Below are positions 10,211-45,001 of a stretch of DNA of 64,000 bases, piece by piece. Under the pieces are notes generated by a model. It was not told the DNA's origin, made no database searches, and was given only the letters and a program-made list of their open reading frames with translations. The DNA is from Candidatus Saccharimonadia bacterium. GTDB lineage: Bacteria > Patescibacteriota > Saccharimonadia > Saccharimonadales > 2-12-FULL-41-12. Made by a program: the position numbers and the translations under genes. Positions within the stretch are counted from its first letter, which is position 1; every line of letters begins with the position of its first letter. The DNA lies in assembly GCA_963717365.1 (NCBI GenBank), contig OY970327.1, positions 587,599 through 651,598 on the forward strand, in the 5' to 3' direction.

Positions 10211-11512
10211 TTATATTATGCTTCGACCGCCGAGGTATGGCCGTAAGACTTCAGGTATGATCACATCACCATCGGCGGTCTGGAAATTTTCGATAATACC
10301 AATTAATGGGCGCTGCGAAAACGCAGTGGCATCGTTGGTGTGAGCCAGCTCCACAGTGCCGTCTGTCCGCCGTACGCGGGTTTGCATAGAGCGGGTTTGA
10401 AAATCAGAAATAAAATCTGCGGTATGCGTTTCACGATAGGCATTTTGACCAGGCAGCCAAACATCGATATCAACACCTTTGGCGTTAGGCCGGCCAATGT
10501 CAGCTGTACATTTTTCTAGTACTCTGTAAGGTAAGCCAATCTGTTGCATTAAATACTCTTGAATGGCGATCATGAGCATGTGCTCATCAAGCGAAGTGTC
10601 GGCGGTAGTAAAGCTTTCCATTTCGAGCTTATTAAACTGGTGTAACCGAAAAAATCCCTCGGTGTCTTTGCCGTATGTACCAGCCTCACGGCGAAATGCG
10701 GTTGTATAGCCAATATAGCGCAGCGGTAAGTCTTTTTCATCGAGGATTTCTTTGTAATACATCGGTGCCAAGGTGTGTTCGGCACTGGCGTTAAGCCACA
10801 AGTCTTCATCTTCAATTTTATAGGTTGTCTCTTCTCTATTAAGACGGCCGGTGGCTTCAAAAATTTCCCTTTTGGCGGCCGCTGGCGGCAATACCGGCTT
10901 AAACGGCTTAGTTGAAACATTTAAGCTGCTGTTAGCAATAATTTGCTTTAGGGTGTCTTCATTACAAACCGTATCCATACCAAACTGCCATAGGGCAAAC
11001 TCCAACCGAACCAAATCACCCATTAAATAAACAAAACGGGCGCCTGCAACTTTAGCACCACGGTCTTTGTCGAGCCAACCTTTTGCTTCGGCAATCTGGG
11101 CATGATTTTTAATCTCAAAATTAAATACTGGTTTTTCACCGATGGTTTTAATAATGACATTCTGCTCTTCAGTCTCGCCTATCGGCACCATATCAAGTGG
11201 CATGTTGGGTACTGATTTTAGTAGTTCCAGCCACTTTTCTTCGGTTTCAGCCAGATAAGTTTCCCGTTCAGCCAGCTCTACTTTTATCTGTTTACCTTCT
11301 TCAATTGCCGCCTGATCCGGCTTGCCACCAGAAACTTTCATTGTCTCAGCTATTTCATTGCGCCGCTGGCGCAGGCTTTCAACCGTTTGCAGCAAGTCTT
11401 TGCGCTCGTTATCAAGCTGCAACAAGAGTTGCACATCAATGTCATAACCTTTTTGCTTTGCCTTTTCGCGGACACGTTCTGGGTTATCTCTGACTAACTG
11501 GATATCTATCAT
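10211..11512 (-). CDS. serS: Seryl-tRNA synthetase
   Basis: 433 aa with an N-terminal coiled-coil arm (MIDIQLVRDNPERV...) and a class II core (FRREAG, GRPNAKG). TATACT lies 7 nt upstream of the ATG. Confidence 0.95.
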   Translation of the reverse strand: MIDIQLVRDNPERVREKAKQKGYDIDVQLLLQLDNERKDLLQTVESLRQRRNEIAETMKVSGGKPDQAAIEEGKQIKVELAERETYLAETEEKWLELLKSVPNMPLDMVPIGETEEQNVIIKTIGEKPVFNFEIKNHAQIAEAKGWLDKDRGAKVAGARFVYLMGDLVRLEFALWQFGMDTVCNEDTLKQIIANSSLNVSTKPFKPVLPPAAAKREIFEATGRLNREETTYKIEDEDLWLNASAEHTLAPMYYKEILDEKDLPLRYIGYTTAFRREAGTYGKDTEGFFRLHQFNKLEMESFTTADTSLDEHMLMIAIQEYLMQQIGLPYRVLEKCTADIGRPNAKGVDIDVWLPGQNAYRETHTADFISDFQTRSMQTRVRRTDGTVELAHTNDATAFSQRPLIGIIENFQTADGDVIIPEVLRPYLGGRSII

Positions 11513-17036: not shown

Positions 17037-17981
17037 TTACTTAAGCGCAATTACGACGATCAAAACAACTGCAAACTTAGTAAACAGATCAATCCGTAGG
17101 TATCGTTCTTCAGCACGGAGATAATCGCCCGCTCTACCCACTCGCAGTTGGCGATATTGAGTAATCGCAAAGCCGATAAAACCAAGCAGCAGTACACCAG
17201 CCACCGCATACACATGCCAACCAAATCGCTCCATGCCGTATAAGCTAGTACCGATGAAGCTACCGATCAGCGGTAGCCATGCCATCGCACCGGTAATTAA
17301 GCTCAGTGTATATGCAAACCATTTTGGACGGGCAGTACCGATGTTTTCACGTTCGGCTATAAAACTCAGCATTGTGGTAATAAAAATTAAGAATGCTGAT
17401 AGTTTTAATGTTGCAAGATCATCTATTCCACCGATTAGGTTAGCAAAGTTCAGTAGTAAGGCAGCGGAGATACCAAAAGCTAACCATCGTAGACCGGAGG
17501 TACGATTAGCAAGCGTAGCTTCATAGCGACTACGTAGTTTTGTTGCTAGTAAAATCAGAATAAGTGAGCTTGCGAGTAATGATGCCGCAAGTACATATTT
17601 TGGATCGAGATTAAAGAGCACTTCACTGGCTGGTCCAAGCACGACAGTGCTATCACTGGCAAATTGATCACGAGTCTGTAGACCAAGCCGTACAGCCACT
17701 TCTGTGGTTGTGACGAAGCCAATTACCAGCGCAGCAAAAATTAGATTGACCATGGCCGAGCTAACAAGCAGACTTCGGATACGGTCTAACGGAGTTAGCG
17801 GGCTGCGTGTTGTTGCCTTTACGGTACTTACGCTTGTTTGTGTGATTAGTGGTTTTTTGACAGCTGTTTTTCGCGGAGCGGCGACAGCTTTTTGGTTAGT
17901 TATTTTCTTGGTAGTTTTTACTGCCTTTGCAGGCTTTTTGGTAGTTGTACGTGTCGATTTCGACTGAGTTGTTGTTGCCAT
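17037..17981 (-). CDS. Heliorhodopsin-like seven-transmembrane protein with a basic N-terminal extension
   Basis: 314 aa with seven predicted TM helices after a ~60-aa K/T/A-rich tail. By-eye similarity to heliorhodopsin 48C12, recalled from memory: RYEATLANRTSGLRWLAFGIS versus RYSASLMKNQNIFRWVEYSLS, GGIDDLATL versus CGIADIVALL, and YLRAEERYLRIDLFTKFAVV versus YLRGERAYIVLSLVAKSALA. The TM7 Lys is codon 302 (17078..17076). Confidence 0.55.
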   Translation of the reverse strand: MATTTQSKSTRTTTKKPAKAVKTTKKITNQKAVAAPRKTAVKKPLITQTSVSTVKATTRSPLTPLDRIRSLLVSSAMVNLIFAALVIGFVTTTEVAVRLGLQTRDQFASDSTVVLGPASEVLFNLDPKYVLAASLLASSLILILLATKLRSRYEATLANRTSGLRWLAFGISAALLLNFANLIGGIDDLATLKLSAFLIFITTMLSFIAERENIGTARPKWFAYTLSLITGAMAWLPLIGSFIGTSLYGMERFGWHVYAVAGVLLLGFIGFAITQYRQLRVGRAGDYLRAEERYLRIDLFTKFAVVLIVVIALK

Positions 17982-19840: not shown

Positions 19841-21058
19841 CTATATGATTGTCCTAACTCGAATATGGTGGGCTGACTTTTGGATGGCCTTAATAAGTTC
19901 TTTCGGCGCACTTGATACTTCTAGATCATATATCCCATACCCAAGACTATCTCTTGTGCGTAATACCTCGCTGGTAATATTTATTTTATTTAAGGCAAGC
20001 AGACGGGCAAGTTCAGCTTCGGCGCCCGGCTGATTTTGGTGCACGTATGTAACTCTAGTAAATTTGTTTTTATGCCCCAGGTCCGCCTGTGGAAGATTCA
20101 CTGCTCCAACCGCGGAACCATTGGCAATATAGCTCAGTAATTTTCGCGTAACAGACGCAGCCGCGTCTTTTTGGGCCTCTTGGGTTGAACCGCCAATGTG
20201 CGGTGTCAGTAATACTCGATCATTACCTCTAAATATTGATGCGAATGTATCGCCTTGTCTGGCTGGCTCGTCTTGATGAACGTCCAGTGCAGCCCCGGCA
20301 ATTTGGCCTGTTTGCAAAGCCTGATTCAGGGCTTTGCAATCCACCGCCTGCGCCCGAGCGGTATTAATGATATAGGCACCGGATTTCATTTTACTGATTT
20401 CGGTGGCACCAATTATTGGTTTGTTTTGCCCTCCGGGCACATGGACCGTTACAACATCGGCCTGAGCTAGCAAATCATCGATCGTCCGTGCCTTGGCATT
20501 TCCAAGCCGTGGACGATCTTGAATATCGGTATACAGTATCTCCATTCCTAATGACTCGGCCATTACTCCCACCTGCTGCCCGATATTACCGTACCCAATT
20601 ATACCCATTATTTTATCCTTTATTTCATAGCTTTGAATTTCGGTTTTGGTCCAGATTCCGGCATGTAACTTTAGGTTGTGACGTTGGGTTTGCCGCAAAA
20701 GCGCAAATGTTGAGCCAATCACCAGCTCGGCAACAGAACGGCCATTGTCATATGGAGAGTTAAACACGGCAATTCCCTCCTGGTTTGATGTTTGACGGTC
20801 AACCTGATCGGTACCAACGCAGTAACAGCCAATTGCCTGAATGGTTGACAGCCTGCTTAGTAATTCGCCTGGCAGTCTTGGCCCTGAACGAATACCTAAC
20901 ACGTCTGCACCTTGTGCTAAGGCTACCAAGTCATCATCTGAAGTATCTTTTGGAAAAGTTTCCACTGCATATCCGGCTTGGTAAAATTGTTCGGTGGCAG
21001 CTTGGTTGATAGAATCGAGCAAGACTGCTCGCTGCTTTGGTTGTATAGTATTGTTCAT
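19841..21058 (-). CDS. serA: D-3-phosphoglycerate dehydrogenase with C-terminal ACT domain
   Basis: 405 aa, collinear by eye with E. coli SerA (GIIGYGNIGQQVG NAD site, LLTPHIGGSTQEAQ, C-terminal regulatory domain). Confidence 0.85.
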   Translation of the reverse strand: MNNTIQPKQRAVLLDSINQAATEQFYQAGYAVETFPKDTSDDDLVALAQGADVLGIRSGPRLPGELLSRLSTIQAIGCYCVGTDQVDRQTSNQEGIAVFNSPYDNGRSVAELVIGSTFALLRQTQRHNLKLHAGIWTKTEIQSYEIKDKIMGIIGYGNIGQQVGVMAESLGMEILYTDIQDRPRLGNAKARTIDDLLAQADVVTVHVPGGQNKPIIGATEISKMKSGAYIINTARAQAVDCKALNQALQTGQIAGAALDVHQDEPARQGDTFASIFRGNDRVLLTPHIGGSTQEAQKDAAASVTRKLLSYIANGSAVGAVNLPQADLGHKNKFTRVTYVHQNQPGAEAELARLLALNKINITSEVLRTRDSLGYGIYDLEVSSAPKELIKAIQKSAHHIRVRTII

Positions 21059-21121
21059 ATTTTTTCCTGTCTTATTCTAGTAATCTAGTTTCTTGTTGTT
21101 TAGTAAAAATTTAATGCACAT

Positions 21122-21150
21122 AAAAAAATCCGCCGGACTCTCCGGCGGAT
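21122..21150 (-). terminator. Intrinsic terminator acting as the candidate attenuator in the serA leader
   Basis: 10-bp stem AUCCGCCGGA/UCCGGCGGAU (21150->21141 / 21137->21128) with loop GAG and a U6 run (21127->21122). It lies 63 nt upstream of serA ATG 21058 and downstream of the Ser-rich uORF. Confidence 0.65.
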
Positions 21151-21177
21151 TACAATTTATTTTGTATGGTTAAGAAT

Positions 21178-21255
21178 TTATGACATACAGATACCGCCAA
21201 CCGAGTCCGAGGTTCGGCTTGATGACGACATTCCGCTGTTGTAGGTCATTTGCAT
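21178..21255 (-). CDS. Candidate serine-rich leader peptide (MQ)MTYNSGMSSSSRTSDSVGGICMS
   Basis: Small ORF with an ATG at 21255 or 21249 and a TAA stop at 21180..21178. 8 of 23 codons are Ser, including the run UCG UCA UCA AGC (21228..21217). Extended -10 TGATAGAAT (21273->21265) lies upstream. It is below the ORF-track size cut-off. Confidence 0.5.
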   Translation of the reverse strand: MQMTYNSGMSSSSRTSDSVGGICMS

Positions 21256-21281
21256 AATAGTACTATTCTATCAGGTTTACT

Positions 21282-22097
21282 TTATTTTACGTAGTAGACA
21301 ACCGTAACCGAGTAGTTCAACTTGTCTTCGCCGGGCTGGACAGCAAGACTGGGCGCAGCCGAATCCTTGGCTGAATCAAACGAAAGCTCAGCGTTACGAG
21401 CAGACATTGGCCTGATGCCGCCACCGCTGGCGCCATCTTCAATGGTTTTAACTTCTCCTACTTTAAAGCCAAGATTTTTAGCTGATTGGTCGGCCTTAGC
21501 TCGAGCATCTTTGGTGGCTTCATCGCGGGCTTTGCCTTCCAGCTCCTTACGCTTAGCGTCGCTAAAGTTGGCTTGCGGTGAAACCTGATCAAGCGGTCCG
21601 GTAGTTAACAAGTAATCCTGAATTTTTTGACTCAAGTCTTTGTCATTCGCCGTTACCGTCAGCCGTAAGGTGTAATTATTAAGCCGAGACTGTTGCTCGT
21701 AGTAGTAGTTATAGTTATGGCCATCAGAATCACTCTTTATTTTGCTATCAGGCACTCCCAATTCTTTAAGTTTGCCAACTACTTCATCGCTCTTCTTAGT
21801 TAATTCCGCTAAGGCTGTTTCTTTATTTGCGTTTTTAAACTGATATGAGGGACTAAACACGTATTCGTCCGGCTCGGCAGTAACCTTTGATTCCCCACTC
21901 ACGGTAATAGTGCGTGACTGGTCAGTCGGTTTATCATCCCAAGGTTTCCAGATAAACAACATGACTGCGATAATTATTAGTAATGCGATAATTATGAACC
22001 GCGCATCTAGACTAACATTTATTTTATTACTTCTTACCGGCTTATCTGACCGGGATGATTCAGGTACTTGATCATTTGAATCCATGACATACTCCAA
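21282..22097 (-). CDS. SIMPL/DUF541-family secreted protein
   Basis: N-terminal TM anchor and a SIMPL-like start ITVSGESKVTAEPDEY. 271 aa. Confidence 0.6.
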   Translation of the reverse strand: MEYVMDSNDQVPESSRSDKPVRSNKINVSLDARFIIIALLIIIAVMLFIWKPWDDKPTDQSRTITVSGESKVTAEPDEYVFSPSYQFKNANKETALAELTKKSDEVVGKLKELGVPDSKIKSDSDGHNYNYYYEQQSRLNNYTLRLTVTANDKDLSQKIQDYLLTTGPLDQVSPQANFSDAKRKELEGKARDEATKDARAKADQSAKNLGFKVGEVKTIEDGASGGGIRPMSARNAELSFDSAKDSAAPSLAVQPGEDKLNYSVTVVYYVK

Positions 22098-22149
22098 TTA
22101 TTTACATATGCCACCATTATTAACCGTTAGCGTATTAAAAACAATTATT

Positions 22150-23947: not shown

Positions 23948-24700
23948 TTATTGTAACACCTCCGTACCTGTTTGAGCGTTTAGAATATGCGTGTAGTCAG
24001 CTCCGGCGTGGCCGATAAACGCGCGTACACCTGCGGTCGTGGCGTCGGCGGCGGCAATAAGTTTACTTTGTATACTGCCAGTACCTTCGCTGCTGGCTTC
24101 CTCAAAGTGCTGCGAAACGGATTCCATGTCAGCGGTTTTCAGCTGGCGCTGGACCACACCGTCGATCAGAAAGCCATCAACGCTGGTTAGCAGCAACAAC
24201 GTTTCTGCCCGGATACGTTTGGCGATATGGGCGGCTAAGCCATCGTTATCGCCGCCGTAGGAGAGTTTTTTAAGTTCAGCCTGACTCAAAATGTCGTTTT
24301 CGTTAATTACCGGCACAATACCAGCCGCCAAGCTTTCACTAATTGCTGCTATCAGGCTTGGACCTTCTTCCTTGCTATCAATTTCGCGGTGAGTCACTAG
24401 TATCTGGCTCGCTAGAATGTCATATTTAGCAAAGCTCTGCTCCCAAGCAACAGCTGCCTCGGCGCTTCCTAGCGAAGCCAACGCCCGATTACTGATACTT
24501 TCCGGTAACTTACCGGCAGTCTGACAACGCCGTTTGCCTACTGCTACCGACCCTGAAGCAACTACCACTACGTCATGTGTCTCTTTTAGCTGTACGATTT
24601 TTTTTGCGTACGTATCAATTTTTGCGAGATCAAGTCCGTCTTTATTTACCACGCACTTTGATCCGTATTTTATGACAATTATTTTCTTTATTTGATTCAT
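23948..24700 (-). CDS. proB: Glutamate 5-kinase (amino-acid kinase fold, no PUA domain)
   Basis: 250 aa. VVVASGSVAVGK, GIVPVINENDILS, GGDNDGLAAHIA, LLLLTSVDG and GTGSIQSKL match ProB motifs by eye. Its stop is 5 nt from the proS start. Confidence 0.7.
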   Translation of the reverse strand: MNQIKKIIVIKYGSKCVVNKDGLDLAKIDTYAKKIVQLKETHDVVVVASGSVAVGKRRCQTAGKLPESISNRALASLGSAEAAVAWEQSFAKYDILASQILVTHREIDSKEEGPSLIAAISESLAAGIVPVINENDILSQAELKKLSYGGDNDGLAAHIAKRIRAETLLLLTSVDGFLIDGVVQRQLKTADMESVSQHFEEASSEGTGSIQSKLIAAADATTAGVRAFIGHAGADYTHILNAQTGTEVLQ

Positions 24701-24723: not shown

Positions 24724-24753
24724 AAAAAGCCCTCTTGTGTTATTTCAGAGGGC
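24724..24753 (-). terminator. Intrinsic terminator acting as the candidate attenuator in the proB-proS leader
   Basis: 7-bp stem GCCCUCU/AGAGGGC (24753->24747 / 24735->24729) with an 11-nt loop and a U5 run (24728->24724). It lies 23 nt upstream of proB ATG 24700, with an AAGGA SD in between. Confidence 0.6.
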
Positions 24754-24779
24754 AGTAACTATAATTTTAACAAGTTAAA

Positions 24780-24836
24780 CTACTCCCCTAGCGGGGGTGG
24801 CGGTAAAACTTGGAAATTATACTTGTAGGCTATCAT
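24780..24836 (-). CDS. Candidate proline leader peptide MIAYKYNFQVLPPPPLGE
   Basis: 18-codon ORF from ATG 24836 to UAG 24782..24780, with four consecutive Pro codons CCG CCA CCC CCG (24803..24792). Perfect extended -10 TGATATAAT (24853->24845) lies 8 nt upstream of the ATG, and there is no SD. It is below the ORF-track size cut-off. Confidence 0.5.
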   Translation of the reverse strand: MIAYKYNFQVLPPPPLGE

Positions 24837-24917
24837 TGTGGGTAATTATATCATGCATTACTTAGCTACACCTTACAAAAGCACCGAATGAGTAAGTTAA
24901 AAGAGACTACAGACAAG

Positions 24918-39981: not shown

Positions 39982-40520
39982 GTCGCTTGCACCTTGCTCG
40001 TTATGCTTAGCATATCATAAAAGTTATAGAACCGTAAACGTTGGGTACTTTTTTACCCCTGTTGTAGATACTATCAATTACAGATAGCCGGATAATACTA
40101 GCGTACATATATATTTCACTACCGACCTATGCAGCAAGACCCCTGAGAGAGTTATTAAGCCCTAGCTCGTCTTCTTCTAGTCTTGTTTTATGTATTTTTA
40201 AGTGTATTAGTAGTCACGTATCACTGGAGAATATGTTAATAGGGGTCAGCTTTTCCAATCAGGAACACGAGAAATTTATCGGATTAAAAAGTCACTATAA
40301 ACGTATGCCTAATAAATACGACATGAGTTCATAAATAACCGCTTTTGCGGAACGTAAATTGCTAAGAATTTACATAGTGTGATTCACGAAATTTTACTAA
40401 GCGGATACTATTTTGGTAAGCTAAGTTTGATTTAATCTGCCGAACAACTTGGCTATTGTAGCTAAAAGTCAGGAATTCGTTAGTGTAAGTTTGCAATAGT
40501 TAACGTGGACTAAAATTAAA

Positions 40521-40568
40521 ACAGGCAGATTGCCATTTAATGGGCAGTCTGCCTGTATTTTTGTTTTA
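40521..40568 (+). terminator. Orphan plus-strand intrinsic terminator
   Basis: 14-bp stem 40521-40534 / 40543-40556 whose only non-Watson-Crick position (t40530 with g40547) is a G-U pair on the plus strand but A-C on the minus strand. It is followed by ATTTTTGTTTT. No plus-strand ORF of 60 aa or more lies upstream. Confidence 0.55.
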
Positions 40569-40729
40569 GGTTTTTGTTTTAGTTTTGCTATGTAATTTTT
40601 GTTTAAATTAATAGCTGGTTTTAAGTATGCACTGTATCTTCCGGGGATGCAAGAGTTTTTTATGCTTATTTTACGTCCTGAGTATAAAAATTGTTCAATT
40701 ACTGTATTTACCTCTGTAATTAAAATATA

Positions 40730-40757
40730 AAAATAGCTGCCGGGTGGCAGCTATTTT
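40730..40757 (-). terminator. Intrinsic terminator of rplU (bidirectional shape)
   Basis: 9-12 bp stem ATAGCTGCC/GGCAGCTAT with a GGGT loop and A/T runs on both sides. It lies 45 nt after the rplU stop. Confidence 0.65.
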
Positions 40758-40801
40758 AAGATAAATTGGATAACTAAAATTATCTGATGTATGTTGCCAG
40801 C

Positions 40802-41110
40802 TTATTTAATCGCGTCAATTTTGAGTGTGGTGAGACGCTGACGATGACCACGAACGGTACGTACGCGCTTCTTGGCTTTGTAGCGAATAGACGTAACTTT
40901 GTCCTGCTGGACATCTGCTTCTACTATGCTGGCTGAGACTTTGACTCCACTGACGGCAGGAGCACCAACAGACGCTTTATCGCCATCAATTATCAACAGC
41001 GCGTCAAAGCTAAGCTTATCCTTGGAATCCTTAATCAACTCAACGTCAACTGTTTCACCAACAGCTACAAGATACTGCTTGCCACCAGTTGCAATAACTG
41101 CTTTTTTCAT
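40802..41110 (-). CDS. rplU: 50S ribosomal protein L21
   Basis: 102 aa. MKKAVIATGGKQYLVAVGETV is typical of L21. Confidence 0.9.
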   Translation of the reverse strand: MKKAVIATGGKQYLVAVGETVDVELIKDSKDKLSFDALLIIDGDKASVGAPAVSGVKVSASIVEADVQQDKVTSIRYKAKKRVRTVRGHRQRLTTLKIDAIK

Positions 41111-41171
41111 TCAATTAACCTCTTACGTGTGTAAAATTTATTTTATTGGACAATATCAATAGACTTGTCCA

Positions 41172-41200
41172 ATACTAACAGATTGAGCGGTCTCTGTCAA
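41172..41200 (-). promoter_or_regulatory. Sigma70-type promoter for rplU
   Basis: TTGACA (41200->41195), a 17-nt spacer, then TAGTAT (41177->41172). An AAGAGG SD precedes ATG 41110. Confidence 0.5.
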
Positions 41201-41230
41201 AGCGGTTACTCGGAGCACTCGTCTGACGTC

Positions 41231-44152
41231 CTACGCTTTTTCAAGCGACAATTTTAGGTCATGACCTTCGACCGAGATAACAGCCGTGTAGCTGTATTCG
41301 CCTTTGTAGGCTACTGATTTCGCAAGCGTTTCACCTGCAATAACAGATTCGAACATAGTTATTGATTCAAGTAATTTTCCGTTTGCTTGGAGCGACAGAT
41401 TTATCCGGTCATCAATCTGCAACCCAGCTTGCTTGCGGGCATTTTGGATATGGCGAATCACTTCGCGCATCAGACCCTCCCGACGAAGTTCGGGACTGAT
41501 CTCTAGATTCACTACAACCAGCGGTGTTTCAGCACGGCTATGCGTAAAAACTTCTTTAACATTGAGCTCTTCAACGATAATTTCCTGCAGTTCAGGGTTT
41601 AGTATCTTGTTTTCATCAAGAATACTGACCGACTGGAGGGGCTGGCGAACTTTTATTTGGGCTTTGGCGCGCTGCGACAGACCCTCATTGATGATTTCGC
41701 GCACAAAGGCCATATCTCGTACTAGAAGGTCGTTTATGTGGCCAGAAGCGGGCCAATCCAGTAAATGTACGCTCTCGCCGCCCGTGAGCTTCTGATACAG
41801 TTCTTCGGCCAAGAATGGCGTAAATGGTGCCATTATTATGCTGAGCTGCGTTAGGACGTAGTGTAGCGTGCGATAGGCCGTCTGTTTATCAGTATCGTCA
41901 CCGCTTTTCCAAAATCGGCGGCGGCTGCGGCGGACGTACCAATTAGAAGCGTCCTCTATAAATGGTAGGATCGGCTTAACGGCATTTGGCACGTCGTACT
42001 TGGTCATATGCCCATCAATTTCGGCGGCAAGCTGGTGGACTCGGCTTACGATCCATTTATCCAAGGAGTTATTAAGGCTATTAGTTGGATCATCAAGACT
42101 GCCGCCCCACTCCCATTTATCTACTTCGGCGTACAAGGTAAAAAAGTCGTACATATTCCACACCATACTCAGCTTGCGGCTAATGTCGCCGATCTCTTTA
42201 TCTTTAACTGCAAAGTCCTCGCCGTTTAACAAGGGTGACTGCAATAGCAGAAAGCGCAGCGCATCAGCGCTGTATTGATCAATTAACAGATTGGGATCAG
42301 TGTAATTACCGAGACTTTTACTGAGTTTGCGACCATCGTTTCCCTGGATAGTACCGGTTACGATGACGTTATTAAAGCTATTCTTTCCAAACAGTCCTAC
42401 GTTTACGGCATGTAGGTAGTAGAACCAGGCACGTACCTGGCCAACGTATTCCACAATGAAGTCGCCGGGATAATTCTGCTCGAATTTCTCCACATTTTCG
42501 AAGGGATAATGGAACTGTGCGAACGGCATGGAGCCGGACTCAAACCAACAGTCTAACACCTTGTCTATGCGTTTATACTCAATACCATCAATGGTAAACT
42601 TCACATTATCAACCCAGGGGCGATGGTAATCTTCCAGCGTAACACCTGACAGTTCCTTAAGTTCAGCGTAACTGCCAACAACTTTGACCTGCTCGTTGCC
42701 CTCTTTGTCTATACCTTTCCAGACTGGCATGGCGGTAGCCCAAAAGCGGTCGCGGCTGAGATTCCAGTCAGGCGCGGATTGAACAATATTATTGAACCGA
42801 CCGTGCTTAATATGCTCAGGGAACCATTCAATATTGCTGTTTTCCTCCAACATTTCGGCCCGCTGGCCATCAATATCCATAAACCAGCTGGGGTGCGCCC
42901 GGTACATAAGCTTAGTGCCACATCGGTGGCAATGGGGGTAGCTGTGCGTAATATAATCAATTTTCCAAATAACACCGCGCTCGTGCAAGATTTTGGCGAT
43001 TGGCTTGTTGGCGTCCCAGACATACTGCCCTTTCCATTCGCCAGATGTATAGTAGCCGCTGTCGTCAATATTACTAACAAAAGGAAAACTATTTTCACGC
43101 GACAAGGCATAGTCTTCCTCGCCGTAAGCCGGTGCCAAATGTACCAGGCCGGAACCGTCTTCTAGATTCACATAGTCGGCATGCCATACTCGATGAGCAT
43201 TTTGGGAGGTTTCACTACTTCCCTCCAAACGACGGTCTTCAAACAACGGTTCATATGATTTTCCGACTAGTTCCTTGCCCTTGAATTTGCGCAGTACCGT
43301 ATGGTCGAGCGGCTGATGCTTTTCATCGGTTAACACTTTGGAAATCAGTTCGCTGGCTAAAATAAACCGTTCTTTGGTGTCAGTTAGCTGAACTTCACTG
43401 TATTCAAAATCCTGGTTTACCGCGACAGCAGTATTGGCTGGCAGCGTCCACGGCGTTGTGGTCCAAGCTAGCAAGCTGGCGCCTTTGAATGATCCCTTTT
43501 TGTCCTCAAGCTTAAATTTTACATAAACCGAGGGATCGGTCACGTCCTGATAGCTGTTATCCATAGCCACTTCGGCCTTGCTGATAGGTGTGGCATCCCG
43601 TACGCAGTAAAGCAATACCTTCTCGCCCTCGTAGATTTTACCCTTCTCGTGAAGCTGCTTAAAAGCCCACCAAACAGATTCCATGTACTCTTTATCCATG
43701 GTTTTATAGGCGCCCTTAAAGTCTACCCAGCGGCCGATCCGATCAATCGTGTCTTCCCACATATCACCGGTCGCTACCATGTTTTCTCGGCAGGTTTTGA
43801 CGTACTCTTCCAGACTAATCTTAGTACCAATGTCTCGCCGGTCCTTGATGCCCAGTTTTTTCTCGGTGAACACTTCGGCTGGTAAGCCATGGCAGTCCCA
43901 GCCCCACACCCGCTCGACGCGCTTCCCTTTCATCGTCCAGTAACGGGGTACTGCATCTTTAACGATACTACTGAGCAAGTTGCCATGATGCGGCTGCCCG
44001 GTGATAAATGGGGGTCCGTCATAAAAAACATATGAGTTACTGTCGGGCCGGTTCTGGACCGATTTCTCAAACGTCTTGTTCTTTTTCCAATATTGGACCA
44101 GGTCTTTTTCGTAATCGATGGCTTGGCGCCGGGTACCTTGCTTAAATTTCAT
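41231..44152 (-). CDS. ileS: Isoleucyl-tRNA synthetase
   Basis: 973 aa with a HIGH-like PHHGNL, KMSKS-like KLSKS and a CP1 editing domain. Confidence 0.95.
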   Translation of the reverse strand: MKFKQGTRRQAIDYEKDLVQYWKKNKTFEKSVQNRPDSNSYVFYDGPPFITGQPHHGNLLSSIVKDAVPRYWTMKGKRVERVWGWDCHGLPAEVFTEKKLGIKDRRDIGTKISLEEYVKTCRENMVATGDMWEDTIDRIGRWVDFKGAYKTMDKEYMESVWWAFKQLHEKGKIYEGEKVLLYCVRDATPISKAEVAMDNSYQDVTDPSVYVKFKLEDKKGSFKGASLLAWTTTPWTLPANTAVAVNQDFEYSEVQLTDTKERFILASELISKVLTDEKHQPLDHTVLRKFKGKELVGKSYEPLFEDRRLEGSSETSQNAHRVWHADYVNLEDGSGLVHLAPAYGEEDYALSRENSFPFVSNIDDSGYYTSGEWKGQYVWDANKPIAKILHERGVIWKIDYITHSYPHCHRCGTKLMYRAHPSWFMDIDGQRAEMLEENSNIEWFPEHIKHGRFNNIVQSAPDWNLSRDRFWATAMPVWKGIDKEGNEQVKVVGSYAELKELSGVTLEDYHRPWVDNVKFTIDGIEYKRIDKVLDCWFESGSMPFAQFHYPFENVEKFEQNYPGDFIVEYVGQVRAWFYYLHAVNVGLFGKNSFNNVIVTGTIQGNDGRKLSKSLGNYTDPNLLIDQYSADALRFLLLQSPLLNGEDFAVKDKEIGDISRKLSMVWNMYDFFTLYAEVDKWEWGGSLDDPTNSLNNSLDKWIVSRVHQLAAEIDGHMTKYDVPNAVKPILPFIEDASNWYVRRSRRRFWKSGDDTDKQTAYRTLHYVLTQLSIIMAPFTPFLAEELYQKLTGGESVHLLDWPASGHINDLLVRDMAFVREIINEGLSQRAKAQIKVRQPLQSVSILDENKILNPELQEIIVEELNVKEVFTHSRAETPLVVVNLEISPELRREGLMREVIRHIQNARKQAGLQIDDRINLSLQANGKLLESITMFESVIAGETLAKSVAYKGEYSYTAVISVEGHDLKLSLEKA

Positions 44153-44282
44153 CGGATGCCTTTCTTTTACTTCTTGCTGATATTGTTTTGGTTGTACTTT
44201 ATAGCGCTATACCTTGATTTCATTAAATTATAATGAAGTCGAGATATAGCACTCAAAACCATATAGCCGCCTTCAAAGTACT

Positions 44283-44490
44283 AAAAAAGCACCTTGTCCG
44301 GCTGTCAGAATCCCACTATAAGGGACGGTACCATCTGACTTCCAAACAAGATGCTTGTTTAAACATCGCGTTTAGCGCTTAATTTACAGCTGTAACGGGC
44401 CAATCCGTCAGGTTCTACTGAGTGAAGTGACAAAGCGCTTCTCTGTTCTGCCTGCTACCTTCGCGGGTGATAACCGCTCATCTGATCTGA
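44283..44490 (-). promoter_or_regulatory. T-box riboswitch leader of ileS (Ile specifier AUC), ultrashort Stem I type
   Basis: Read on the minus strand. GAUGA GA-motif, then hairpin GCGG-UUAUCAC-CCGC-GA with AUC-A in the 7-nt loop (AUC = 44471->44469). F-box CCGUUA at 44399->44392. Stem III AAACAAG-CAU-CUUGUUU at 44360->44344. T-box core AGAUGGUACCGUCCC at 44336->44322, forming helix GUCAGA/UCUGAC with bulge UGGUACCG (44339->44304). Confidence 0.6.
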
Positions 44491-44556
44491 TAGCTCAAAC
44501 TAAGAACCAGTCGATCAAAACGTATGTACTTGGCAGTATATCAGATTTCTGGTCGC

Positions 44557-44820
44557 CTAAATATGGGTGTAGTATGAAATTTCTTGCATCAGAGGAAAAT
44601 CAGTGCCTTGCCAAAATTTAACTAGCTGCCCATCCGTACCCAATACGAGAATGGCTGGGTGTTGGATGATGTCATAGAGACTAGCGGTTGATGAGCCATC
44701 CCTAGTATCTATATTTACTAGATCGATTCGCGCTTGGTGTTGTCGTTCTAGTTCCCGGGCAAAATCTTCTACCATACGAGAGAATTCTGAGTTCGGACGG
44801 TAAAGCATAACTACCTTCAT
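44557..44820 (-). CDS. Thioredoxin-fold small protein lacking the CxxC motif
   Basis: 87 aa with a beta-alpha-beta pattern (KVVMLY...IDLVNID...HPAILVLG...LVKFWQG). NSEFS sits where CxxC is expected. TGCTATACT (44836->44828) lies 7 nt upstream of ATG 44820. Confidence 0.45.
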   Translation of the reverse strand: MKVVMLYRPNSEFSRMVEDFARELERQHQARIDLVNIDTRDGSSTASLYDIIQHPAILVLGTDGQLVKFWQGTDFPLMQEISYYTHI

Positions 44821-44935
44821 ACGGTTTAGTATAGCAGTTTTAATTTTCAGGTAATAACTTGCGTTAGTCTATGCTTGTTATCCGATTTACTCGTTGAAGA
44901 TACCGACTTCCATTGTTTATATGATTGAAGTTAGA

Positions 44936-44978
44936 GAAAAATATAGAGCGGTCTACCATCTTGTAGATGATGAGACCG
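44936..44978 (-). terminator. Probable intrinsic terminator of nrdJ
   Basis: Interrupted hairpin CGGTCT...CATC / GATG...AGACCG (44949-44978), followed on the minus strand by CUCUAUAUUUUUC. Confidence 0.4.
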
Positions 44979-45001
44979 TTCTGTTTTTCGCACTTACTGT
45001 T

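Follow-up and report, generated by a model that had tools for sequence, protein, structure and literature searches.

A putative serine-specific leader-peptide attenuator upstream of serA in Saccharibacteria

Saccharibacteria (TM7, of the candidate phyla radiation, CPR, or Patescibacteria) have reduced genomes, are host-dependent and are generally regarded as unable to make amino acids. How would a gene for serine biosynthesis be controlled in such an organism? The question is raised by a 64,000-nt stretch of a Saccharibacteria genome (contig OY970327.1, positions 587,599 to 651,598; the whole stretch is called the window hereafter), which carries serA, the gene for D-3-phosphoglycerate dehydrogenase, on its minus strand. 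Between serA and a preceding gene for a SIMPL-domain protein, an initial annotation made from the sequence alone had pointed out a short upstream open reading frame (uORF) with a run of serine codons and a terminator hairpin behind it, and had proposed that the two together sense serine. Having compared this leader with those of related serA loci, we found that the element is real and conserved and that ribosome-mediated attenuation by serine is the probable explanation for it; in our judgement, the serA leader is likely a leader-peptide transcription attenuator that is specific for serine and controls serA.

Serine codons upstream of serA

The features of the locus to which the argument refers are the following.

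21284..21282, minus strand: stop codon of the SIMPL gene
21265..21273, minus strand: extended -10 element TGATAGAAT, with the first ATG (21255) 9 nt downstream
21178..21255, minus strand: leader open reading frame (ORF) MQMTYNSGMSSSSRTSDSVGGICMS, 25 codons plus TAA, with ATGs at 21255 and, in frame, at 21249, and the TAA at 21180..21178
21217..21228, minus strand: Ser run TCG TCA TCA AGC, codons 10-13, the proposed regulatory codons
21122..21151, minus strand: intrinsic terminator AAUCCGCCGGA gag UCCGGCGGAUU plus U-run
21059..21121, minus strand: 63-nt spacer from the T-run to the serA ATG (21058), with the Shine-Dalgarno sequence AGGA at 21068..21065
21102..21074, minus strand: promoter-like TAAACA-17-TAGAAT, of doubtful significance
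19841..21058, minus strand: serA, D-3-phosphoglycerate dehydrogenase, 405 aa (Pfam 2-Hacid_dh and 2-Hacid_dh_C), the proposed regulated gene

The positions that had been assigned to the SIMPL stop codon, the -10 element, both ATGs, the ORF, the Ser run, the pairing segments, the terminator and the spacer were all recovered on the minus strand, and the count of eight Ser, three Gly and one Cys in the leader ORF was likewise correct. The earlier assignment of serA to 3-phosphoglycerate dehydrogenase also holds, with the window protein scoring 442.8 bits against the NCBIfam equivalog PRK11790 (phosphoglycerate dehydrogenase) and thereby passing the cut-off of 404.

A comparison with relatives, which the initial annotation had proposed as a check, was made with the DNA around ten SerA homologues. 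The nearest homologues are 61% to 47% identical to the window SerA, a protein that evolves fast in the Saccharibacteria group. The upstream region can be read at ten loci, window included, and at eight of these a Ser-rich uORF and an intrinsic terminator immediately precede serA; the eight full leaders are those of the window and of the loci L004, L006, L009, L010, L017, L019 and L022, and the SerA proteins of the leader-bearing relatives are 50-55% identical to that of the window. At L003 (SerA 61% identical), the contig ends 79 nt upstream of serA, and the terminator and the end of an ORF (...S-I-S-stop) are visible. The element is missing at L005, where the upstream gene is divergent, and at L007/L008, where serA lies within a purH-serA-purN operon. 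The leader peptides of the relatives read as follows.

L004: MLMTYNCGYSPSSNYSESSAGGLYMS
L006: MQMTYKSGNSSTPRMAHP
L009: MQMTYNSGNSSQAADNLSVGSLSS
L010: MRMTYKTGTSSRSRISSSAWRSVVS
L017: MQMTYKTGTSSSNRISSSIDVSRMS
L019: MLMTYNSGMSSSNWNTSSVGGLYMS
L022: MQMTYKTGTSSSDRSMCSIDSSCVS

A SIMPL gene is found before the leader in the window only, none of the relatives having one upstream of serA, and the upstream neighbour of the leader is elsewhere greA (L004, L019) or ligA together with a small gene (L010, L017, L022). These differing neighbours indicate that the element travels with serA. A covariance model of the ORF domain, built from seven sequences, found one copy per serA locus, always before serA, and also recovered L006, which lay outside the training set (31.5 bits, E = 1e-4); it gave no match elsewhere in the window or in the loci that lack the leader. 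At L024, whose LysS is the closest to that of the window (86% identity), lysS comes straight after greA, and serA, the SIMPL gene and the leader are all absent, the last without a remnant. As a side observation, the cassette of serA and leader is variably present (window 19841-22149 versus L024 4027-4181).

Serine dominates the codons of these leaders. All eight have Ser (TCA or TCG) as codon 10, and seven also have Ser as codon 11, within a consensus start of M-x-M-T-Y-(N/K)-x-G-x-S-S; the ORFs are 18-26 codons long, with an open frame of 24-26 codons in seven leaders and of 18 codons in L006. Pooled over the eight loci, Ser takes up 56 of 193 codons (29%) versus 6.6% in the long ORFs of the window (binomial P = 1e-21). 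From codon 10 onward the share is 52 of 121 (43%), compared with 12.5 +/- 3.2 Ser in shuffles, none of 5000 of which reached 52, although the leader sequences are related to each other and shuffle statistics therefore overstate their independence. The remaining two frames of the leader DNA hold only 0-2 Ser per sequence in the eight leaders. Both TCN and AGY codons contribute to the enrichment, with TCA and TCG making up 66% of the Ser codons in the leaders versus 30% in window genes, and aligned Ser positions are kept through switches between TCN and AGY. Changes in the N-terminal part of the ORF fall at third positions and are synonymous (ACC/ACA, TAC/TAT, AAC/AAT, GGA/GGT), and the 3-nt insertion in the leader ORF of L004 is in frame. 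The leader ORF thus appears to change like coding sequence, which argues for its translation. A Ser/Cys-rich precursor of a ribosomally synthesized and post-translationally modified peptide was considered and rejected, as Cys is unconserved, no modification enzymes lie nearby and serA is the sole constant neighbour.

A promoter is predicted immediately before the leader ORF. The motif TGNTANNNT, whose background frequency in the window is 0.0013 per position, precedes the first ATG in seven of the eight leaders, at a distance of 6 nt in five loci and of 9 nt in the window and L019. With a start about 7 nt past the -10 box, the predicted 5' end of the RNA is the A of the ATG itself, except in the window and L019, where it lies 2-3 nt earlier; for the window this would be the A at about 21258. 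No Shine-Dalgarno sequence is present ahead of the leader ORF. Because the -10 box sits 6-9 nt before the ATG, the leader mRNA is predicted to be leaderless or near-leaderless. Leaderless translation itself, like ribosome stalling and serine-dependent read-through, is inferred from sequence. A scan of the window for a -10 box followed by an ATG, a short ORF and a terminator returned this leader, the proB leader described below and one weak match only.

Alternative structures of the leader RNA

The coupling of the Ser codons to serA would lie in the fold of the leader RNA, for which the following parts are needed in addition to the terminator.

21240..21249, minus strand: 5' strand of helix P1, AUGACCUACA / AUGACAUACA, leader nt 7-16
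21180..21189, minus strand: 3' strand of helix P1, UGUAUGUCAU, leader nt 67-76, made up of the last sense codons and the first stop-codon base
21214..21236, minus strand: segment 1, the anti-antiterminator 5' strand, leader nt 20-42, holding Ser codons 10-13 (from the minimum free energy (MFE) structure, the centroid and per-sequence duplexes)
21194..21212, minus strand: segment 2, the antiterminator 5' strand CCUCGGACUC GG UUGGCGG, leader nt 44-62

The 134-nt leader folds with -39.3 kcal/mol (z = -2.87 versus dinucleotide shuffles). P1 joins the start of the ORF to its end by 7-10 bp in all eight leaders, with a compensatory change from C-G to U-A in L019 and L004. In the seven-sequence alignment, P1 and the central hairpin have 85% of cells paired versus 14-45% when the partners are slid, and four pairs have changed on both sides. 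At L003 (positions 1-30), where the ORF ends in AGC AUU AGU UAA, the C-terminal Ser is kept by means of the AGU codon; because of this codon the usual P1 3' strand GUCAU is absent there, and the 5' partner lies beyond the contig. The terminator of the window consists of arms at 21150..21141 and 21137..21128 with the T-run to 21122, and the terminator scan gave it a stem of 11 bp, 7 of them G-C, and a loop of 3 nt.

Segment 2 has two alternative partners, segment 1 or the terminator. In both the MFE and the centroid structure of the window, the strand with Ser codons 10-13 (nt 20-42) is paired to the strand with UUGGCGG (nt 46-69). The initial annotation had set the two segments at 21218..21211 (GCCGAACC) and 21202..21194 (GGTTGGCGG); both were found there, but the proposed pairing of GCCGAACC with GGTTGGC is weaker than that of the folded RNA. 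Comparable pairings of segments 1 and 2 occur in the other leaders, where the repeated Ser codons let the register slip. Since these repeats shift the helix register, for example between the window and L019, fixed-column covariation was dropped for the pairings of segment 2 with segment 1 and with the terminator 5' arm (segment 3), and was replaced by per-sequence duplex energies with shuffles and a permutation test.

Pairing with the terminator joins nt 44-62 of the window (21212..21194) to nt 108-126 (21148..21130) in a duplex of 17 pairs and -28.0 kcal/mol (z = -3.7 versus shuffles), which takes up the 5' arm, the loop and most of the 3' arm. This antiterminator is larger than the one suggested earlier and extends into the loop and the 3' arm. 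In seven of the eight leaders, the duplex of segment 2 with the terminator is stronger than in shuffles (z from -2.25 to -3.7; the exception is L006), and only 8 of 40320 permutations equalled the cognate assignment of segment 2 to terminator. In L017 and L022, GGCGG is replaced by a (C/U)UCGAUCGA segment (GCUCGAUCGA or UUCGAUCGAU) that is complementary to the UCGAUCGAG apex of their own terminators. All eight leaders have the terminator in their MFE structure when no ribosome is present, and likewise when one is masked at the stop codon. A ribosome mask with the A site at codons 10-12 turned the MFE structure to the antiterminator in four of the eight (window, L004, L010, L019), and in transcripts ending before the 3' arm the same stalled-ribosome mask led the 5' arm to pair with segment 2 in six of the eight. 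With the exception of L006, the RNA is thus predicted in silico to be capable of mutually exclusive terminator and antiterminator structures.

Based on these structures, we propose that transcription would start from the extended -10 element, that the RNA would begin at or within 3 nt of the AUG with its ORF translated leaderless, and that a ribosome would load onto the leader co-transcriptionally. Where charged tRNA-Ser is ample, this ribosome would reach the stop codon, and segment 1 would be released and re-pair with segment 2, helped by P1, which would close the domain once the ribosome leaves; with segments 1 and 2 paired, the terminator at 21151..21122 would form and transcription would stop ahead of serA. 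Where tRNA-Ser charging is low, the ribosome would stall on codons 10-13 and cover segment 1, and the freed segment 2 would pair with the emerging terminator, taking up its 5' arm, its loop and part of its 3' arm (17 pairs), so that the terminator would be blocked and RNA polymerase would enter serA. It had been thought that a ribosome at the stop codon masks segment 2; this is true of its 3' edge only, and because a ribosome on nt 76-78 would cover just the last bases of segment 2, termination would depend mainly on the re-pairing of segments 1 and 2. P1 might also serve to block re-initiation at the 5' AUG after completion of the leader, or to favour the terminating fold as the default. Read-through from the SIMPL gene is probably stopped by the hairpin as well in the window.

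Serine attenuation and its alternatives

Several points weigh against serine attenuation by this route. The whole case is built on sequence, and the in-silico switch is not clean: in full-length leaders under the stalled mask the terminator stays the MFE structure in four of the eight, and in truncated transcripts the 5' arm pairs with segment 2 even without a ribosome in three (L004, L010, L019). Covariation is modest, with one compensatory pair in P1 and only eight related sequences. Some Ser codons, the last codon included, come late in the ORF beyond segment 2, and stalling there would not favour read-through. L006 is an outlier, with 3 Ser in an ORF of 18 codons and an antiterminator that is not significant (z = +0.97). 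On the side of translation, the uORF lacks a Shine-Dalgarno sequence, the predicted starts in the window and L019 leave a leader of 2-3 nt instead of a 5'-terminal AUG, and we know of no demonstrated leaderless translation in Saccharibacteria. The 63-nt spacer and the promoter-like sequence at 21102..21074, both peculiar to the window, could permit transcription of serA independently of the attenuator. Lastly, a classical attenuator would need neither the near-invariant peptide M-x-M-T-Y-(N/K)-x-G nor the P1 helix.

This last point leads to the explanation that survives best beside serine attenuation. The conserved nascent chain could act as an arrest peptide that senses free serine, or a metabolite related to it, from within the exit tunnel and works the same terminator switch, either in place of the hungry Ser codons or together with them; among known arrest peptides, TnaC responds to tryptophan and SpeFL to ornithine. 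The first 11 residues are near-invariant while SerA itself is only 50-61% identical, the third-position changes at the N-terminus are synonymous, and Gly8 lies outside P1, which hence does not account for its conservation. On the other hand, nt 7-16 form P1, which alone constrains much of this sequence, and the dispersed 43% Ser in the variable part fits a hungry-codon sensor and would be unneeded for arrest. To our knowledge, the leader peptide also resembles no known arrest peptide, which we count against this explanation, and we regard it as quite unlikely. A related view, which we consider unlikely, is that the invariant peptide and the P1 clamp form a new sensor, in which arrest is triggered by a ligand, hungry Ser codons are not the sole signal and the first co-transcriptional ribosome decides; if true, bacteria of the candidate phyla radiation would have an arrest peptide that senses a ligand and acts through an intrinsic terminator.

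The layout of the RNA, in which the conserved P1 closes a domain with internal helices and a terminator lies behind, is aptamer-like, and in L006 the ORF ends early yet the downstream RNA is still alignable. Both would agree with a metabolite-binding riboswitch or other structured RNA, a P1-closed domain on a terminator platform whose reading frame is incidental and untranslated. Such an RNA would not call for Ser enrichment in one frame only, kept through switches between TCN and AGY and through an in-frame insertion or deletion, nor for an ATG at the predicted transcription start in seven of the eight leaders; moreover, sequence conservation inside the domain is low, as it would not be in a ligand pocket, and there is no Rfam match at the gathering threshold. 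We find this reading very unlikely.

It is just as improbable, in our view, that the element is a stand-alone gene for a small Ser-rich protein or a trans-acting short RNA, with its place beside serA of secondary importance. The element does have a promoter and a terminator that delimit an RNA of ~130 nt, and the N-terminus of the peptide is conserved. In Sinorhizobium, the trp attenuator products rnTrpL and peTrpL act in trans. Two articles describe trans-acting attenuator products (PMC7298713, PMC7968998). However, the element occurs only directly before serA, in two neighbourhoods (greA-serA-lysS and ligA-serA), is absent where serA is absent (L024), and has a terminator that abuts the serA ribosome-binding site (RBS); a role in trans would also add to attenuation and not replace it.

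The least credible alternative, already raised with the initial annotation, is that the hairpin is merely the terminator of a greA-SIMPL unit, with a serA promoter in the 63-nt spacer and a non-regulatory small ORF: the window SIMPL gene has no terminator of its own before the hairpin and a promoter-like match does lie between terminator and serA, but such matches are no commoner in the region than in shuffles (10 found versus 11.3 expected), the start implied by this one (estimated at ~7 nt past TAGAAT, about 21067) falls inside the AGGA Shine-Dalgarno sequence, relatives without a SIMPL gene keep uORF and terminator, greA of L019 has a separate terminator ahead of the leader promoter, and stopping SIMPL read-through does not explain a conserved uORF. 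In the seven relatives, the distance from the T-run to the serA ATG is 15-31 nt and is largely occupied by Shine-Dalgarno sequence, which leaves little or no room for a second promoter. As a separate observation on the spacer, the window, L010, L017 and L022 share a conserved UUUUAUGU right behind the U-run (window 21114-21121), which creates a tiny ATG-initiated frame between terminator and serA (ATG TAA in L017 and L022).

The SerA protein itself differs among the loci. SerA of L010, L017, L019 and L022 is 314-326 aa long and lacks the C-terminal regulatory domain of the 405-aa window protein, a domain that is ACT-like in E. coli SerA; these short proteins score 332-359 bits against PRK11790, under the cut-off of 404. 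In these four loci, the leader may be the sole serine feedback at the SerA step.

Known attenuators, the proline leader and the surrounding genes

Leader-peptide attenuation is a textbook mechanism; in the literature covered by our search, the amino acids concerned are Trp, His, Thr, Leu, Phe, Ile/Val and Cys, and the bacteria are Proteobacteria, Actinobacteria and some Firmicutes. Our full-text literature search found no serine leader or attenuator, in agreement with the statement of the initial annotation that no Ser-codon attenuator of serA had been described, and the comparative attenuator surveys consulted do not mention serine or serA. A scan of the whole window against Rfam, leader families and T-box included, gave no match at the gathering score, and a permissive scan of 20900-21450 found no leader family, and no T-box at E up to 10. 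The sole match with E < 0.1 was sroD (24.9 bits, gathering score 50), mainly over the terminator hairpin; the weak matches to sroD, RcsR1 and STnc50 were all rejected, as they align mainly over this hairpin.

The serA leader shares with the classical leaders (trpL, hisL, thrL, leuL, pheL, ilvL) a short ORF rich in codons for the end product, regulatory codons in segment 1 of the alternative helices 1:2, 2:3 and 3:4, a Rho-independent terminator before the first gene, and termination as the default of the untranslated RNA. It differs from them in its amino acid, serine, in the leaderless prediction, in the extra P1 helix, in its CPR host and in its stop codon, which lies downstream of segment 2 whereas the classical one lies between segments 1 and 2; nor does it match the Rfam families Trp_leader, His_leader, Thr_leader or Leu_leader.

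Closer in translation start are the polycysteine leaderless small ORFs (sORFs) of mycobacteria, which Canestrari et al. describe as cysteine-responsive attenuators that unmask a ribosome-binding site (bioRxiv 10.1101/834739; Mol Microbiol 2020). Both systems have a run of cognate codons in an sORF that is leaderless, or for serA is predicted to be so, and in which a stalled ribosome remodels (or, for serA, would remodel) the mRNA; the serA leader is unlike them in having an intrinsic terminator with U-run in all eight cases, in Ser versus Cys and in its phylum. As the terminator with its U-run stands behind the ORF and the serA Shine-Dalgarno sequence lies outside it, the readout of the serA leader appears to be transcriptional and not an unmasking of the RBS. 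The ilvB1 leader of M. tuberculosis and Corynebacterium, with an LVVI uORF and a Rho-independent terminator (PMC13236596, PMC11857589), resembles the serA leader in having regulatory codons in a uORF, exclusive antiterminator and terminator structures, and a stop-codon ribosome that prevents the antiterminator; in contrast, it senses branched-chain amino acids, its uORF lies within a 166-nt leader and its sequence is unrelated.

Serine is read by other means in Firmicutes. Ser T-boxes control serine biosynthesis genes there, for example in Paenibacillus polymyxa (PMC8002221). The logic is the same, since low charging of tRNA-Ser relieves a terminator before serine biosynthesis genes, but a T-box works without translation, through direct binding of uncharged tRNA, whereas the serA element is a Ser-rich ORF. 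In sinR of B. subtilis, UCN Ser codons act as a sensor of serine starvation (PMC3862929). Slowing of the ribosome at TCN codons reads serine, and TCA and TCG likewise dominate the serA leader (66%); unlike the serA leader, however, the sinR sensor lies inside an ordinary gene and lowers its own translation, with no leader ORF, terminator or alternative helices.

A serine-specific attenuator would add a new amino-acid specificity to leader-peptide attenuation as well as a natural reporter of seryl-tRNA charging. As far as the literature search shows, no amino-acid-sensing attenuator has yet been documented in Saccharibacteria (CPR/Patescibacteria), so that this one would be the first, and with promoter, leaderless ORF and terminator in about 150 nt it would offer a compact and portable design for synthetic biology.

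The initial annotation had further noted a leader of the same design 3.5 kb away, before proB, and its -10 element, Pro-run ORF and terminator were indeed found.

24724-24853, minus strand: proline leader region, 3.5 kb from the serA leader
TGATATAAT, minus strand: extended -10 element, 8 nt before the ATG at 24836
24836..24780, minus strand: proline leader ORF MIAYKYNFQVLPPPPLGE, with the Pro run (PPPP) at 24803..24792
24753..24724, minus strand: terminator GCCCUCU/AGAGGGC plus U5, with the proB start at 24700

The two leaders have in common an extended -10 element, the lack of a Shine-Dalgarno sequence, a short ORF with a run of cognate codons and a terminator just before the gene; they differ in the codons, Pro in place of Ser, and their peptide and RNA sequences are unrelated. 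Pro-containing uORFs and terminators also lie ahead of proB in L019 and L017, and proB of L024 starts 16 nt behind the CAAX gene and has no leader. The 49 window ORFs scanned against Pfam include no gene for amino-acid biosynthesis other than proB and serA, so that each such gene identified in the window is preceded by a leader in which codons for its own amino acid form a run. The serA and proB-proS leaders would imply that lineages which have kept these genes use them under feedback control, and that transcription-translation coupling and leaderless initiation operate in those lineages.

Searches in wider collections added few relatives. The SerA protein scan of a genome-contig collection returned a Verrucomicrobiota locus (41% identical) and one 28% match, with no close relative among them; a pattern scan of metagenomes for ATGNNNATGACNTAYAANNNNGGNNNNTCNTC returned L015 (on the same contig as L010) and four chance matches in high-GC genes, a scan of viral contigs yielded one chance match only, and megablast against plasmids gave no match.

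On the minus strand, the gene order around the leader is M50 protease, CAAX protease, proB, proS, greA, the SIMPL-domain gene, the leader, serA, lysS and heliorhodopsin. The gene for seryl-tRNA synthetase, serS (10211-11512, minus strand), follows 21 nt behind its preceding gene; no leader ORF, T-box or terminator was found upstream of it in the window, and the serine signal of serA is therefore not common to serS in this genome. Two further stretches of the window, 39982-41230 (1.25 kb) and 44153-45001 (0.85 kb), have no ORF of at least 110 aa and no Rfam match at the gathering score; the latter adjoins, on the upstream side, a gene for a class I aminoacyl-tRNA synthetase (41231-44152). The heliorhodopsin gene lies at 17037-17981 on the minus strand (Pfam PF18761, E = 3e-24), and the syntenic relative L024 has one too.

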